Source: a virus | DNA length: 22,194 nt | UHGV virus genome: UHGV-0136179 | Direction: 5' to 3' (one strand) | Shown here: positions 3,439 to 8,739 of the stretch, in pieces | Layout: every line of letters starts with the position of its first letter | Position numbering within the stretch: position 1 is the stretch's first letter | The notes under the pieces: model-generated | Told to the model about the DNA's origin: nothing | Database searches by the model: none | Seen by the model: the letters and a program-made list of their open reading frames with translations, nothing else | Program-made: the position numbers and the translations under genes

Positions 3439-3710
3439 GTATTAGTATTGAAATTGGCGAACGTTATGTCGTTACCAGTGACAGCTTTCAGTTTATTCTC
3501 CACGAGAAAAAGAGAGCTGAAAGCGGTAAAAACGCCGGTCAGGAATGGCTGGCGGTGGTTGGTTATTACCCGAAATTAAGCCAGCTCGTTTCCGGCCTGA
3601 TGCATCACGATATTCTGACCGGAAGCGCAAAGTCTTTTGCTGATTTAAACGCGCAGGTTGAGCAACTCAGCAAGCGTTGTTCAGAGGCTTTTGGCTCATA
3701 TGGCCGTTAA
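3435..3710 (+). CDS. Hypothetical early protein (orf83 position)
   Basis: 91-aa ORF, GGAGAA SD, overlaps the A start. Confidence 0.45.
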   Translation: MSISIEIGERYVVTSDSFQFILHEKKRAESGKNAGQEWLAVVGYYPKLSQLVSGLMHHDILTGSAKSFADLNAQVEQLSKRCSEAFGSYGR

Positions 3711-5967
3711 AGCCTCCGGGCGTTTTGTCCCTCCGTCAGTATTTGCCGCAGGCACCGGTGAGACGTTTACCGGTGCTTATGCATGGAACGCGCCACGCGA
3801 GGCCGTCGGGCGCGAAAGACCCCTTACACGTGACGAGATGCGTCAGGTGCAAGGTGTTTTATCCACGATTAATCGCCTGCCTTACTTTTTGCGCTCGCTG
3901 TTTACTTCACGCTATGACTACATCCGGCGCAATAAAAGCCCGGTGCACGGGTTTTATTTCCTCACATCCACTTTTCAGCGCCGTTTATGGCCGCGTATTG
4001 AGCGCGTGAATCAGCGCCATGAAATGAATACCGACGCGTCGTTGCTGTTTCTGGCAGAGCGTGACCATTATGCGCGTCTGCCGGGGATGAATGACAAGGA
4101 GCTGAAAAAGTTTGCCGCCCGTATCTCATCGCAGCTTTTCATGATGTATGAGGAACTCTGCGATGCATGGGTTGATGCACATGGCGAGAAAGAATCGCTG
4201 TTTACAGATGAGGCGCAGGCGCATCTGTATGGTCATGTTGCTGGCGCTGCACGTGCTTTCAATATTTCCCCTCTCTACTGGAAAAAATACCGTAAAGGAC
4301 AGATGACCACGAGGCAGGCATATTCTGCCATTGCCCGTCTGTTTAACGATGAGTGGTGGACTCATCAGTTTAAAGGCCAGCGTATGCGCTGGCATGAGGC
4401 GTTACTGATTGCTGTCGGGGAGGTCAATAAAGACCGTTCTCCTTATGCCAGTAAACATGCCATTCGTGATGTGCGTGCGCGCCGCCAGGCAAATCTGGAA
4501 TTTCTTAAATCGTGTGACCTTGAAAACAGGGAAACCGGCGAGCGCATCGACCTTATCAGTAAGGTGATGGGCAGTATTTCTAATCCTGAAATTCGCCGGA
4601 TGGAGCTGATGAACACCATTGCCGGTATTGAGCGTTACGCCGCCGCAGAGGGCGATGTGGGCATGTTTATCACGCTGACCGCGCCGTCAAAGTATCACCC
4701 GACACGTCAGGTCGGAAAAGGCGAAAGTAAAACCGTCCAGCTTAATCACGGCTGGAACGATGAGGCATTTAATCCAAAGGATGCGCAGCGTTATCTCTGC
4801 CGTATCTGGAGCCTGATGCGCACGGCATTCAAGGATAATGATTTACAGGTCTACGGTTTGCGAGTCGTCGAGCCACACCACGACGGAACGCCGCACTGGC
4901 ATATGATGCTTTTTTGTAATCCACGCCAGCGTAACCAGATTATCGAAATCATGCGTCGCTATGCGCTCAAAGAGGATGGCGACGAAAGAGGAGCCGCGCG
5001 AAACCGTTTTCAGGCAAAACACCTTAACCGGGGCGGTGCTGCGGGATATATCGCGAAATACATTTCAAAAAATATCGACGGCTATGCACTGGACGGTCAG
5101 CTCGATAACGATACCGGCAGACCGCTGAAAGATACTGCGGCGGCTGTTACCGCATGGGCGTCAACGTGGCGCATCCCGCAATTTAAAACGGTTGGCCTGC
5201 CGACAATGGGAGCTTACCGTGAGCTACGTAAATTGCCTCGCGGCGTCAGCATTGCTGATGAATTTGACGAACGCGTGGAGGCTGCACGCGCCGCCGCAGA
5301 CAGTGGTGATTTTGCGTTGTATATCAGCGCACAGGGTGGGGCAAATGTTCCGCGTGATTGCCAGACTGTCAGAGTCGCCCGTAGCCCGTCGGATGACGTT
5401 AACGAGTACGAGGAAGAAGTCGAGAGAGTGGTCGGCATTTACGCGCCGCATCTCGGCGCGCGTCATATTCATATCACCAGAACGACGGACTGGCGCATTG
5501 TGCCGAAAGTTCCGGTCGTTGAGCCTTTGACTTTAAAAAGCGGCATCGCCGCGCCTCGGAGTCCTGTCAATAACTGTGGAAAGCTCACCGGTGGTGATAC
5601 TTCGTTACCGGCTCCCACACCTTCTGAACACGCCGCAGCAGTGCTTAATCTGGTTGATGACGGTGTTATCGAATGGAATGACCCGGAGGTCGTGAGGGTG
5701 CTCAGGGGCGCATTAAAACACGGCCTGAGAACACCAAATCGTCAGCAAAGAAACGGAAGCCCGTTAAAACCACATGAAATTGCACCATCGGCCAGGCTGA
5801 CCCGGCCGGAACGATTGCAAATTACCCGTATCCGCGTTGACCTTGCTCAGAACGGTATCAGGCCTCCGCGATGGGAGCTTGAGGCGCTGGCGCGTGGGGC
5901 AACAGTAAATTATGACGGGAAAAAATTCACGTATCCGGTCGCTGATGAGTGGCCGGGATTCACATAA
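3700..5967 (+). CDS. A: Rolling-circle replication initiator gpA (HUH endonuclease superfamily)
   Basis: 755 aa from the ATG at 3700 (the ORF extends to 3658 via a non-ATG). HUH motif PHWHMMLF and tyrosine motif GYIAKYISKNIDGY are visible in the translation. Confidence 0.9.
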   Translation: MAVKASGRFVPPSVFAAGTGETFTGAYAWNAPREAVGRERPLTRDEMRQVQGVLSTINRLPYFLRSLFTSRYDYIRRNKSPVHGFYFLTSTFQRRLWPRIERVNQRHEMNTDASLLFLAERDHYARLPGMNDKELKKFAARISSQLFMMYEELCDAWVDAHGEKESLFTDEAQAHLYGHVAGAARAFNISPLYWKKYRKGQMTTRQAYSAIARLFNDEWWTHQFKGQRMRWHEALLIAVGEVNKDRSPYASKHAIRDVRARRQANLEFLKSCDLENRETGERIDLISKVMGSISNPEIRRMELMNTIAGIERYAAAEGDVGMFITLTAPSKYHPTRQVGKGESKTVQLNHGWNDEAFNPKDAQRYLCRIWSLMRTAFKDNDLQVYGLRVVEPHHDGTPHWHMMLFCNPRQRNQIIEIMRRYALKEDGDERGAARNRFQAKHLNRGGAAGYIAKYISKNIDGYALDGQLDNDTGRPLKDTAAAVTAWASTWRIPQFKTVGLPTMGAYRELRKLPRGVSIADEFDERVEAARAAADSGDFALYISAQGGANVPRDCQTVRVARSPSDDVNEYEEEVERVVGIYAPHLGARHIHITRTTDWRIVPKVPVVEPLTLKSGIAAPRSPVNNCGKLTGGDTSLPAPTPSEHAAAVLNLVDDGVIEWNDPEVVRVLRGALKHGLRTPNRQQRNGSPLKPHEIAPSARLTRPERLQITRIRVDLAQNGIRPPRWELEALARGATVNYDGKKFTYPVADEWPGFT

Positions 5968-6085
5968 ACTGAAATGAACAGCGTTGCAAGTGTGATAAAA
6001 ATCATTATACTGTTTTTATATACAGTACTTTAATCTGGAAAGATGCTATAAATGTATATTTCTATAAAAATATATGGTTTATTGA

Positions 6086-6114
6086 TTGTGTATGCTCACT
6101 ATCAAATTTATACT
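6086..6114 (+). promoter_or_regulatory. Candidate sigma-70 promoter for cargo locus 1 (-35 TTGTGT, 17-bp spacer, -10 TATACT)
   Basis: Lies in the A+T-rich spacer between the A stop and the cargo gene; hexamers only. Confidence 0.25.
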
Positions 6115-6244
6115 CCGCGCGCAATGTTGAGTATGCTTAAGATATAGCGTTTACAATTCCAGGCTTGAAGGCTCGGGTATAGGTAAAAATTGAGTGTTCT
6201 CGGTTGCTTTTCGTGACATAAGAGGACAGCAAAGGAGGTTGAGT

Positions 6245-6715
6245 ATGTACAGCCCATTGAACATCGCGAATAAGTTTATAGAACTTGCTTGCGCGGCTGG
6301 TATGCCAATCACCCAGATGCAGGCACAAAAGCTGACCTATATAGCACATGGTATAAATCTGGGTTACAAAGGCACGCCTTTGTTAACGACACCAGTTTGT
6401 GCATGGCGTTATGGTCCAGTGGTTCCAGTTCTGTATAACCATCTTAAAGTTTATGGCCGTAGTCCCATAACACAACCAATACAAGTTCCATCGGCAATTT
6501 CTCAGGAGTTTGACCCTATGACTGAGCAGTTGCTGCAGAACGTTTATAACGTTTACGGTAAATATACCGCTGAGGATTTATCTGCTTTCACACATCGTGA
6601 AGGTACTCCTTGGAAGCAAGCAATGGATAGTCGTATGGATATCATTCCTGATTCCGTTATTCAGGATTACTATCAAAAGCTGCTACACGGCGATAGCAAT
6701 TGCATCGGACTATGA
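6245..6715 (+). CDS. Panacea/DUF4065-like protein (candidate antitoxin or defence component)
   Basis: ATG at 6245 with perfect AAAGGAGG SD 6 nt upstream; 156 aa. Segment QKLTYIAHGINLGYKGTPLLTTPVCAWRYGPVVPVLYNHLKVYG resembles the DUF4065 core as I recall it (KLQKL.Y.A.G ... W..GPV.P..Y). Located in the A-Q variable slot. Confidence 0.5.
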   Translation: MYSPLNIANKFIELACAAGMPITQMQAQKLTYIAHGINLGYKGTPLLTTPVCAWRYGPVVPVLYNHLKVYGRSPITQPIQVPSAISQEFDPMTEQLLQNVYNVYGKYTAEDLSAFTHREGTPWKQAMDSRMDIIPDSVIQDYYQKLLHGDSNCIGL

Positions 6716-6730
6716 GTCCGAATTAAGATA

Positions 6731-6755
6731 ACCCCGTCTATGTACGGGGTTTTTT
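6731..6755 (+). terminator. Intergenic hairpin plus T6 between the two cargo genes
   Basis: Stem ACCCCGT (6731-6737) / ACGGGGT (6744-6750), 6-nt loop, T-run 6750-6755; the downstream ATG begins at 6756. Confidence 0.55.
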
Positions 6756-7328
6756 ATGCCTGACGATAATAAGAAAGTGACAGCTGAATTTGATAAAGAC
6801 CTTCTCAGACGATTGCAGCAAGCTGAGCAGAATCTGATAACTGCCTCTGCGGCTTTGGGAGATGAGGGCTGTTGGGATGAAGAATCTCATGAGCCTGAGT
6901 CTGTTGAGGACGCTGTTGATGAAATGCAAAAGGAAGAAGAGGATGCTGCGACCATGCAGCGTTTGGATTTATCCAGTCTTAATTTTCAAATTGCTGAATT
7001 GAGTCGCTGTGTTGAAACTATAAGCACTAACCTTGAAAGCGTACAGGCAGAAACCAAAAGAAAAAATGCGGAAACCGACGGCCTGCTTACGGACAATGAG
7101 CTCCGTAGAACTATGGCTGATAAAACATATCAATTCATGATTGTTTGGTGTTGTTTTGTCGGCTGGGTCATATTTATGTATGTATTGAAAAAAGATTTTG
7201 ATCCACCAGAAACAATTATCATTGCGCTTATGGGAACCACAACTGTGAGTATTGTGGGATTGGTTGGGTTTGTTGTTAGTGGTTTGTTCAAAAGCAACAA
7301 TAAACCTTCTGGCGACAATAAAAATTAA
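6756..7328 (+). CDS. Acidic coiled-coil protein with C-terminal two-helix membrane hairpin (candidate toxin/effector)
   Basis: 190 aa. Acidic N-terminus (EESHEPESVEDAVDEMQKEEEDA); hydrophobic segments FMIVWCCFVGWVIFMYVL and IIIALMGTTTVSIVGLVGFVVSGLF; A+T-rich. Start uncertain because it abuts the terminator T-run. Confidence 0.5.
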   Translation: MPDDNKKVTAEFDKDLLRRLQQAEQNLITASAALGDEGCWDEESHEPESVEDAVDEMQKEEEDAATMQRLDLSSLNFQIAELSRCVETISTNLESVQAETKRKNAETDGLLTDNELRRTMADKTYQFMIVWCCFVGWVIFMYVLKKDFDPPETIIIALMGTTTVSIVGLVGFVVSGLFKSNNKPSGDNKN

Positions 7329-7338
7329 TCATCAAAGT

Positions 7339-7363
7339 GGCACCTTTGGGTGCTATTTTTTTT
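7339..7363 (+). terminator. Rho-independent terminator closing cargo locus 1
   Basis: Stem GGCACC/GGTGCT with TTTG loop, followed by T8, 11 nt after the stop at 7328. Confidence 0.55.
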
Positions 7364-7516
7364 GCTTTTTCCGCGATTTCTCTGTTTTTTCCGTGCATCA
7401 TTTGATGCATGAGTTTGAATGTGCTTTAGTCGAGCTCACTTGCTTTCTGCTGCCAATGCTAGCTAGGTTTGACGGTGTTCATGCAACTGCATTAAAACCG
7501 ACCCATGAAGCGGGCG

Positions 7517-7535
7517 GGCGAGGCGGGGAAAGCAC
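7517..7535. other. cos: cos site: 19-nt cohesive-end sequence GGCGAGGCGGGGAAAGCAC
   Basis: Exact match to the P2/186 cohesive end as I recall it; correct position between the A-side cargo and Q; G/T-rich flank at 7536-7680. Confidence 0.75.
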
Positions 7536-7677
7536 TGCGCGCTGGCGGTGGTGCTGATTTTATTTTTTCAGCGTCTGAGCGCGTCGTGATGGCGTTTAGA
7601 TTGTGCGCCGGGGCGTTGGTTTGTCTGCGGGCTGTTTTGCGCGGTGTTGAGCGTGTGAGGGCGTGATGACGGGGTGT

Positions 7678-7699
7678 AAAAAAGCCGCCCGCAGGCGGC
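7678..7699 (-). terminator. Terminator of the leftward P-Q operon
   Basis: On the minus strand, hairpin GCCGCC-(4 nt)-GGCGGC followed by a U6 run, 5 nt after the Q stop. Confidence 0.65.
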
Positions 7700-7704
7700 G
7701 ATGT

Positions 7705-8739
7705 TCAGCCGTTGTCAGTGTCCAGTGAGTAGTTTTTAAAGCGGATGACCTCCTGACCGAGCCAGCCGTTTATCTCGCGGATCCTGTCCTGTAGCGGGAT
7801 AAGCTCATTGCGGACAAAGACCTTTGCCACTTTCTCAATATCACCCAGCGACCCGACGTTCTCCGGCTTGCCGCCCATCAACTGAAAGGGGATGCGGTGC
7901 GCGTCCAGCAGGTCAGCGGCGCTGGCTTTTTTGATATTAAAAAAATCGTCCTTCGTTGCCACTTCACTGAGCGGGATAATTTTAATGCCGTCGGCTTTCC
8001 CCTGTGGGGCATAGAGAAACAGATTTTTAAAGTTATTGCGGCCTTTCGACTTAACCATGTTTTCGCGAAGCATTTCGATATCGTTGCGGTCCTGCACGGC
8101 ATCGGTGACGTACATGATGTATCCGGCATGTGCGCCGTTTTCGTAATACTTGCGGCGGAACAGCGTGGCCGACTCATTCAGCCAGGCAGAGTTAAGGGCG
8201 CTGAGATATTCCGGCAGGCCGTACAGCTCCTGATTGATATCCGGCTCCAGCAGGTGAAACACGGAGCCGGGCGTGAAAGGTGTCGGCTCGTTGAAGGACG
8301 GCACCCACCAGTAAACATCCTCCTCCACGCCACGACGGGTATATTTTGCCGGTGAGGTTTCCAGTCTGATGACCTTACCGGTGGTGCTGTAACGCTTTTC
8401 CAGAAACGCATTACCGAACACCAGAAAATCCAGCACAAAGCGGCTGAAATCCTGCTGGGAAAGCCACGGATGCGGGATAAATGTTGAGGCCAGAATATTA
8501 CGTTTGACGTAAATCGGTGAGCTGTGATGCACGGCAGCACGCAGGCTTTTTGCCAGACCGGTAAAGCTGACCGGTGGCTCATACCATCTGCCGTTACTGA
8601 TGCACTCGACGTAATCCAGAATGTCACGGCGGTCGAGTACCGGCACCGGCTCACCAAAGGTGAATGCCTCCATTTTCGGGGCGCTGGCGGTCATTTTTTT
8701 TGCCGCAGGTTGCGGTGTTTTCCCTTTTTTCTTGCTCAT
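7705..8739 (-). CDS. Q: Portal protein gpQ
   Basis: 344 aa, identical in length to P2 gpQ; leftward, start overlaps the P stop (ATGA); position next to cos. Confidence 0.9.
   Translation of the reverse strand: MSKKKGKTPQPAAKKMTASAPKMEAFTFGEPVPVLDRRDILDYVECISNGRWYEPPVSFTGLAKSLRAAVHHSSPIYVKRNILASTFIPHPWLSQQDFSRFVLDFLVFGNAFLEKRYSTTGKVIRLETSPAKYTRRGVEEDVYWWVPSFNEPTPFTPGSVFHLLEPDINQELYGLPEYLSALNSAWLNESATLFRRKYYENGAHAGYIMYVTDAVQDRNDIEMLRENMVKSKGRNNFKNLFLYAPQGKADGIKIIPLSEVATKDDFFNIKKASAADLLDAHRIPFQLMGGKPENVGSLGDIEKVAKVFVRNELIPLQDRIREINGWLGQEVIRFKNYSLDTDNG

Follow-up and report, generated by a model that had tools for sequence, protein, structure and literature searches.

Toxin-antitoxin (TA) and abortive-infection modules have to hold a lethal effector nearly silent yet ready, and how the ratio of their products is set is known for few systems. 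The viral genome UHGV-0136179 raises this question at one gene junction. The stretch of 22,194 nucleotides (nt) analyzed here (the window) is a P2-like prophage, and a gene pair, panA and panT, is located inside its gpA-gpQ defence hotspot. The first gene encodes a Panacea antitoxin and the second one a putative membrane toxin; a hairpin followed by a run of T stands between them, directly in front of the panT start codon. How can panT be expressed behind such an element? According to the original prediction, made from the letters of this DNA, panT expression would need both read-through of a terminator and melting of its stem. Our analysis suggests a different arrangement, in which positions 6700-6755 (56 nt) would form a compact composite junction that decouples the toxin from transcription of the antitoxin.

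A conserved hairpin separates panA from panT

The panA gene ends with the TGA at 6713-6715, 14 nt ahead of the hairpin stem (Table 1). The stem is 8 base pairs (bp) in length, including five GC pairs, and it is closed by a 6-nt loop. The 7-bp stem ACCCCGT/ACGGGGT described in the original prediction is the core of this longer stem. The T6 tract is present as well, as had been stated; it ends at 6755 and touches the ATG. GGGG at 6746-6749 is indeed the sole run ahead of the panT ATG that resembles a Shine-Dalgarno (SD) sequence, and it lies in the right (3') arm. RNA folding, which had been named as a check, supports the hairpin, with a minimum free energy of -13.1 kcal/mol and a z-score of -3.0; none of 200 shuffled sequences folds equally well. 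The hairpin is called on the + strand by a consensus terminator scan, whereas on the - strand the same scan finds the stem followed by ATCTTAATTC, with no T-run.

Homologous loci came from three kinds of collections (viral, metagenomic and genomic) and from look-ups of exact protein matches; the scan of genome contigs returned one locus only. In all 83 fetched loci where both genes could be located, the PanA open reading frame (ORF) lies directly upstream of PanT, and the few fragments in which PanA was not detected are truncated at panT or shortly ahead of it. There are 35 distinct junction sequences among these loci. Twenty-eight of them carry a GC hairpin within a gap of 40-47 nt. Six are hairpin-less, with a gap of 18-26 nt and an ordinary SD; they come from lambdoid-type contexts, including the PhiR47_1 type. 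The remaining one, L085, is distant: its gap is 56 nt long and contains a hairpin of unrelated sequence abutted by a perfect TATAAT, the order being TATAAT, hairpin and a T8 run that merges into the TTG start codon. In the PanA tree the hairpin-type junctions are monophyletic, and the hairpin is kept down to ~44% PanA identity. Deposited phage genomes yielded the hairpin-less type only; another viral scan, for which distant PanT relatives served as queries, gave no new junctions, and the distant PanA loci L138-L143 have overlapping genes or short gaps and no hairpin.

In the alignment of the 28 hairpin-type junctions, 96% of the cells are paired and the eight core pairs have no broken cell. 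Compensatory two-sided changes occur at seven of nine pairs (CCCCG/CGGGG, TCCCG/CGGGA, CCTCG/CGAGG, CCCCA/TGGGG and others). The pairing score was matched by none of 500 shuffles, and controls slid along the alignment were 28-56% paired. RNAalifold finds the same stem. Loops range from 3 to 7 nt and stems from 8 to 15 bp. Within the core-pair cells we counted 13 G·U and zero A·C combinations; therefore, selection acts on the + strand RNA. A T-run of at least six follows the stem in 24 of the 28 junctions, and it abuts the start codon in 21. Taken together, the hairpin has all the sequence features of an intrinsic terminator, as had been proposed, and termination at this position is predicted. 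A scan of 5900-7700 against Rfam at E <= 5 gave a best E of 0.012, which is below the gathering score.

The panT Shine-Dalgarno sequence and start codon

The hairpin also engages the translation signal of panT. In RNA that contains both arms, as a read-through transcript does, the probability that the panT SD is unpaired is 0.005; in RNA starting at 6736 it rises to 0.28. In every hairpin-type junction the G-rich arm is the 3' arm, so the SD lies in the stem throughout. RNAalifold over -36 to +30 yields the hairpin only, with no conserved alternative structure that would free the SD.

An in-frame TAA at 6729-6731 bars any upstream start of panT. PanT homologues at 62-86% identity keep the N-terminus MP[DE][DE]NK and also show protein-level conservation over codons 14-33. 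Because of this stop codon and the conserved N-terminus, ATG 6756 is, as judged by reading frame and conservation, the true start of panT. The refutation that the original prediction had allowed for, a true start at a downstream Met, does not apply: homologues do not share the GTG at codon 8, no further ATG occurs before codon 57, and protein-level conservation extends over codons 2-33. For two homologues, L080 (1201-1821) and L081 (3001-3645), gene callers extend PanT through the hairpin and give N-termini of MINPVYITGFFM... and MISPVTLRGFFLM...; these extended calls ('MINPV...GFFM') are artefacts, which shrink the apparent gap to 9 nt and hide the junction. A mini-ORF of seven codons starting in the loop (6740-6763, ATG TAC GGG GTT TTT TAT GCC TGA) overlaps the panT ATG out of frame; it was rejected as a candidate, the loop ATG being unconserved in homologues.

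Promoter-like boxes at the end of panA

Two promoter-like boxes stand in front of the stem, the first of them within panA (Table 1). In all 28 hairpin-type junctions they take the form TTGC(A/C)N, a spacer of 17-18 nt and TAnnAT ending 0-2 nt before the stem. The codon alignment of 27 panA genes shows how tightly the upstream box is held. Third positions in this alignment are near saturation, typically 1.3-2.0 bits; besides those of Met and Trp codons, the only third positions with zero entropy are the two within TTGC. The residue preceding the Cys is of seven kinds (N, V, I, A, T, S and H), and its codon is always NNT. The Cys itself is always TGC, whereas the other Cys column of panA is TGT 19 times and TGC eight times. 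As judged from these codons, TTGC is held by a DNA-level constraint beyond the coding need, acting through synonymous sites of panA. The hairpin-less clade has neither box, and its codons for the same C-x-G-L terminus read aTGTCa or similar. RNAalifold places neither box in a conserved RNA structure.

These observations suggest that TTGC and TAnnAT form a sigma-70 promoter driving panT, with its activity predicted from sequence. The boxes of the window follow the sigma-70 form TTGnnn, 17±1 bp, TAnnnT. When a simple sigma-70 position weight matrix (PWM) was applied, the panT site was the best of the region in 25 of the 28 junctions, with scores of up to 12.5 bits; in the hairpin-less clade no site was found at a consistent place. 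Recovery of the panA promoter served as the positive control for finding promoters by alignment: in 27 aligned upstream regions its TTG and TATA(A/C)T show little or no variation, and its PWM score of 10.1 bits ranks 11th among 221,630 sites of the window. From geometry alone, the +1 of the putative panT promoter is predicted at about G6736, in the 5' arm of the stem; all 28 junctions have a purine in this column. The putative promoter has a C-rich discriminator (AACCCCG).

Two other sigma factors were considered and rejected. Reading TTGCA as the -12 box of sigma-54 leaves the -24 GG one nucleotide out of register in the window, and it is missing in most homologues. Reading CCCCGTCT as a sigma-32 -10 box (CCCCATNT) places it ~26 nt from the TTG box, and stems of the TCCCG and CCTCG variants no longer match. 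Separately, the closest relatives share a small hairpin at 6705-6721 (TCGGACT-ATG-AGTCCGA), with the panA stop in its loop and 3' arm; one compensatory change is seen in L008 (GGTCT/AGACC), and the hairpin is absent from the wider clade. It sits between the -35- and -10-like boxes of the putative panT promoter.

A model for the junction

We propose that the terminator shields panT against transcription arriving from upstream and that a weak promoter embedded in the same element drives panT; the probability of this reading is, in our estimate, about 0.5. Transcripts coming from upstream, from the panA promoter and probably from read-through of gpA during P2 lytic growth, would carry both arms, fold the GC stem with its U6 and mostly end right before the panT AUG. 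In those that read through, the panT SD would still be trapped in the stem. The embedded sigma-70 promoter would start at ~G6736 within the 5' arm, giving RNAs unable to form the hairpin; such RNAs would therefore ignore the terminator and expose the SD. In their ~20-nt leader, GGGGU would be a moderate SD, spaced from the AUG by the U-run. The predicted outcome is much PanA, owing to a strong promoter and a strong SD, and little PanT, owing to a weak promoter and a weak SD, with PanT output shielded from whatever transcription comes from upstream. No + strand terminator-like site was found by the terminator scan between the gpA stop and 6730; because the region after gpA holds no other terminator on this strand, P2 early transcripts would probably be stopped at the hairpin.

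The original prediction thus survives in part. The perfect SD that it had assigned to the first gene is there (AAGGAGGT), its duplex with the anti-SD having an energy of -12.8 kcal/mol versus -6.2 kcal/mol for panT. Both the terminator features and the sequestration of the panT SD (~0.5% unpaired) stand. The necessity of read-through and stem melting is not supported: all 28 hairpin-type junctions carry -35- and -10-like boxes with the predicted +1 inside the 5' arm. Read-through may not be required, and it may be a minor route to PanT.

Several points weigh against an embedded promoter. The PWM was a simple one with assumed base frequencies. The copy in the window scores 6.7 bits, rank 190 of ~220,000 sites (top 0.1%), with three of six matches in the -35 box, four of six in the -10 box and a spacer of 18 nt, and the consensus scan missed it. 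Position 4 of the -35 box is an invariant C, whereas the sigma-70 consensus has A; a factor other than sigma-70 might thus use the TTGC box. A promoter that yields toxin with no co-transcribed antitoxin is unusual for type II modules. In four of the 28 junctions (L010, L022, L023 and L086) the stem is kept but the T-run is degraded, which may point to a hairpin role beyond termination. Two of these four, L010 and L022, combine the best -35 box (TTGCCA, 12.5 bits) and the longest stems (11 and 15 bp) with a poor T-run; on these two sequences only, they may have shifted from termination to pure SD sequestration or insulation.

The strongest competitor, for which we see roughly one chance in four, is that the hairpin is a terminator or attenuator only. 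The two genes would then be one operon, PanT would come solely from rare read-through combined with stem melting, and the boxes would be conserved for some other reason. The full and conserved set of terminator features agrees with this explanation, as do the sequestered SD and the modest promoter score of the window; there is also a precedent, the internal terminator of hicA(T)B, which sets the ratio of two gene products likewise (PMC11878559). What it leaves unexplained is the pair of invariant, sigma-70-spaced boxes, one of which is held via synonymous sites, and the perfect TATAAT next to the unrelated hairpin of L085. Nor did we find a conserved alternative fold by which the SD would be released. 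We consider attenuation that depends on the ribosome unlikely: with 14 nt between the panA stop and the stem, a ribosome terminating at this stop should not reach the stem.

It is unlikely, in our view, that the hairpin acts post-transcriptionally and does not terminate, serving as a stabilizer of the 3' end of a processed panA mRNA, as a translational repressor of panT, or as both, with the two genes co-transcribed. The SD within the stem in all junctions and the four stems with poor T-runs would fit such a role, and protective hairpins with differential decay are widespread in operons (PMC5927463). However, neither a stabilizer nor a repressor needs the T-run of at least six that follows the stem in most junctions, the sister clade copes with a short gap and an SD and no hairpin, and the promoter-like boxes are again left unexplained.

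We regard it as improbable that the inverted repeat is a DNA operator, at which a dimeric repressor would act on the panT promoter. Its position across the predicted +1, from -6 to +16, is typical of operators, and type II TA complexes often autoregulate. Several features speak against this idea: the half-site spacing varies with the loop and stem lengths given above, the G·U cells with no A·C cells are a strand-specific RNA signature, the T-run is conserved on one side only, and PanA has no N-terminal DNA-binding domain (Pfam finds Panacea only; its relative is catalogued as 'noNTD', PMC8832971 supplement). Finally, a chance hairpin with no function is effectively refuted: short GC hairpins do occur randomly, at ~1.9 terminator-like sites per 1.85 kb in shuffled sequence, but not with covariation in 28 junctions down to ~44% protein identity, where synonymous sites elsewhere are near saturation.

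The embedded promoter also allows a more elaborate and rather doubtful proposal, in which the junction works as an infection-sensing NOT-gate. Polymerases from the panA promoter or from the phage early operon would cross the panT promoter before terminating and would occlude it. GC-rich discriminators of the two promoters may give them differing responses to ppGpp or to polymerase takeover by a phage. Upon collapse of upstream transcription, occlusion would be lifted, labile PanA would no longer be renewed, and PanT made from hairpin-free, translatable RNA would kill the cell (abortive infection). In the lytic cycle of P2, gpA read-through would over-produce PanA and protect the phage.

Comparison with known systems

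The closest described relatives are the PanA/PanT type II TA pairs of the T3 membrane-toxin cluster (Kurata et al. 2022, PMC8832971). The window pair shares with them the Panacea antitoxin, a toxin with a charged N-terminal part and a C-terminal transmembrane region, and the order of antitoxin before toxin. The junctions are different. In the hairpin-less sister clade, which includes the validated PanAT of E. coli STEC O31, the E. coli type has the gap of 22 nt recorded for this validated pair, and nearly all T3 gaps listed in the same paper are between -26 and +14 nt (PMC8832971); the clade studied here has a junction of 40-47 nt with hairpin, T-run and promoter-like boxes. Because the published T3 gaps almost all fall into that narrow range, the hairpin-type junction is, by this comparison, an atypical, derived state. 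The PanAT paper makes no mention of a terminator, a hairpin or the intergenic region (PMC8832971).

Each half of the proposed junction has a precedent. The hicA(T)B module of IncI2 plasmids has an internal intrinsic terminator (Lin et al. 2025, PMC11878559). As in panA/panT, a GC hairpin and a U-tract lie between two type II TA genes; in hicA(T)B they raise the ratio of upstream to downstream product; the hairpin is placed just before the downstream ribosome-binding site and lowers its translation in hicA(T)B (PMC11878559); and there are two subfamilies, one with and one without the terminator. Different from panA/panT, where the antitoxin is upstream, the toxin is the upstream gene in hicA(T)B, so its terminator favours the toxin; the U-tract is 3 nt long, no promoter embedded in the terminator was described, and the proteins are unrelated.

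For the promoter, the precedent is paxe, an internal promoter in the axe antitoxin gene of the axe-txe module (Boss et al. 2013, PMC3760812). Like the putative panT promoter, it is of sigma-70 type, lies in the antitoxin coding sequence, drives the toxin independently of the operon promoter and is of similar quality, with three of six matches in the -35 box and a 17-bp spacer. It differs in that its start lies ~110 bp upstream of txe, no terminator is combined with it and the proteins are unrelated. The start of paxe was mapped experimentally, whereas that of panT is predicted, in the terminator stem and 20 nt from the AUG.

A terminator in front of a toxin gene is found in type III TA modules too. 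In ToxIN, a phage-defence module, the antitoxin repeats are followed by a terminator ahead of the toxin gene, which limits toxin transcription relative to antitoxin; the antitoxin is an RNA, and the toxin depends on read-through. We know of no embedded promoter in ToxIN. In the literature we found no description of a terminator fused with a promoter whose start lies inside the terminator stem, and it is this fusion that seems to be the new part.

The panA/panT cassette and its hotspot

The features of the cassette and its borders are collected in Table 1.

Table 1. Features of the panA/panT cassette and of its borders in the window
Feature	Positions	Strand	Basis or remark
gpA, P2-type replication gene	3658..5967	+	Pfam Phage_GPA, E = 1e-123; left border of hotspot, co-directional with panA/panT
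panA promoter: -35 TTGTGT (6086-6091), 17-nt spacer, -10 TATACT (6109-6114)	6086..6114	+	conserved in 27 upstream regions
GC-rich discriminator CCGCGCGC of panA promoter	6115..6122	+	(C/T)CGCGCGC-like in nearly all homologues; predicted +1 ~6121; putative function
Strong panA SD AAGGAGGT	6232..6239	+	anti-SD duplex -12.8 kcal/mol; conserved in homologues
panA, Panacea (DUF4065/SocA-like) antitoxin, 156 aa	6245..6715	+	Pfam PF13274, E = 5.2e-18, 66.5 bits versus cut-off of 25.7
-35-like hexamer TTGCAT	6700..6705	+	overlaps panA codons Asn-Cys-Ile; TTGC invariant in 28/28 hairpin-type junctions
-10-like hexamer TAAGAT	6724..6729	+	18 nt after -35, abuts stem; TAnnAT invariant in 28/28
Terminator hairpin, 8-bp stem AACCCCGT (6730-6737) / ACGGGGTT (6744-6751), loop CTATGT (6738-6743)	6730..6751	+	sequence, fold, covariation
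SD-like GGGGU of panT	6746..6750	+	in 3' arm, 5-6 nt before ATG; anti-SD duplex -6.2 kcal/mol
T6 tract, putative U-tract and SD-to-AUG spacer	6750..6755	+	touches ATG 6756-6758
panT, 190-aa toxin, acidic N-terminal part and two C-terminal transmembrane helices	6756..7328	+	hydropathy, charge, homology
Terminator-like hairpin with T8, closes cassette after panT	7334..7367	+	terminator scan
gpQ portal gene	7705..8739	-	Pfam Phage_portal and RefSeq annotation; right border of hotspot

The panA product is labelled 'Panacea domain-containing protein' in RefSeq, and Panacea is its only domain by Pfam. In PanT, the acidic N-terminal stretch makes up two-thirds of the protein, with a net charge of -17 over residues 1-120, and the hydropathy profile shows two hydrophobic segments (residues 125-146 and 152-178). 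Throughout the PanT family, the C-terminal motif IALxGTxTxSIVGLVGFVVSGLFKS does not vary. PanA and PanT each share ~45% identity with their counterparts in an E. coli lambdoid prophage (phage PhiR47_1), where the pair is annotated as PanA/PanT; over residues 86-180, PanT is 44% identical to the PanT of this phage. The validated PanT(Esc. col.) of E. coli STEC O31 depolarizes the membrane, arrests growth and is neutralized through direct binding by its PanA (PMC8832971), and the validated PanA relative is the one catalogued as 'noNTD' in the supplement of that paper. The second gene, called a membrane-protein gene in the original prediction, is thus a homologue of a validated membrane-depolarizing toxin. 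By domain, synteny and toxin architecture, panA/panT is a PanAT member; toxicity of the window's PanT itself and its neutralization by PanA are predicted. Against PADLOC-DB models, PanA gave no match and PanT gave only a stray one (E = 0.05).

Upstream of panA, several further sites deserve description. A promoter-like site at 5984-6011 (TTGCAA, 16 nt, TATACT) scores 10.5 bits, rank 7 in the window; it is located right after the gpA stop, ~100 nt upstream of the conserved panA promoter. The discriminator CCGCGCGC of the panA promoter, set in an AT-rich cassette, resembles those of stringently controlled (ppGpp/DksA-sensitive) promoters. In L003, L007, L008 and L077-L079, the motif ATTGAC(A/G) occurs ~90-150 nt upstream of the panA ATG and downstream of the panA promoter. 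It is conserved in many homologues, followed by TATAAG in the closest relatives, and it could be a second promoter or an operator. At the corresponding position the window is deleted or divergent (ACAATTCCAGGC, ~6134-6145).

The gpA-gpQ interval has been defined as a P2 defence hotspot (PMC9122126, PMC13586616). In the window, the insert between the two genes is low in GC (36-44%). The same placement between gpA and gpQ, next to cos, is seen in L076-L079, L081-L083 and L086, and hairpin-type homologues, whether close or distant, occupy this hotspot. The cassette is present in identical copies in 11 of 5,426 complete E. coli genomes. With the hairpin at the junction and the one that closes the cassette, panT is bracketed by + strand terminators; a GC hairpin with T6 lies on the - strand at 7699-7684, after the portal gene. 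The sequence GGCGAGGCGGGGAAAGCAC at 7517-7535, between the cassette and the portal gene, is presumably the 19-nt cohesive end (cos) of phage P2, and its placement fits a cos-proximal hotspot. Extra cargo genes are present between panT and the portal gene in L078 (3596-4240), L081 (4267-6009), L082 (3963-4717), L083 (3853-4551) and L086 (2734-3630). They encode an AIPR-domain protein, DUF8209 and DUF1493 proteins, a DUF4145 protein, a Vpar_1526-like protein and a 214-aa protein with no annotated function. Since homologous hotspots hold such further cargo after panT, the PanAT cassette is one of several modules swapped there.

Implications

Two practical cautions follow for work on this family. 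A foreign promoter placed ahead of the cloned 'operon' would not control panT, and gene callers run panT through the hairpin in some homologues.

One PanAT clade, confined to the P2 defence hotspot, has swapped a tight operon junction for a 56-nt element and has kept this element through deep divergence. Within it, the same bases appear to act as C-terminal codons of the antitoxin, promoter, terminator, SD of the toxin and spacer. If the embedded promoter is real, the element would be a compact natural 'insulator', a terminator that stops all transcripts except those born inside it, a design that would be of use to synthetic biology. It would also make it possible to test how prophage toxins are kept apart from early transcription of the phage itself.

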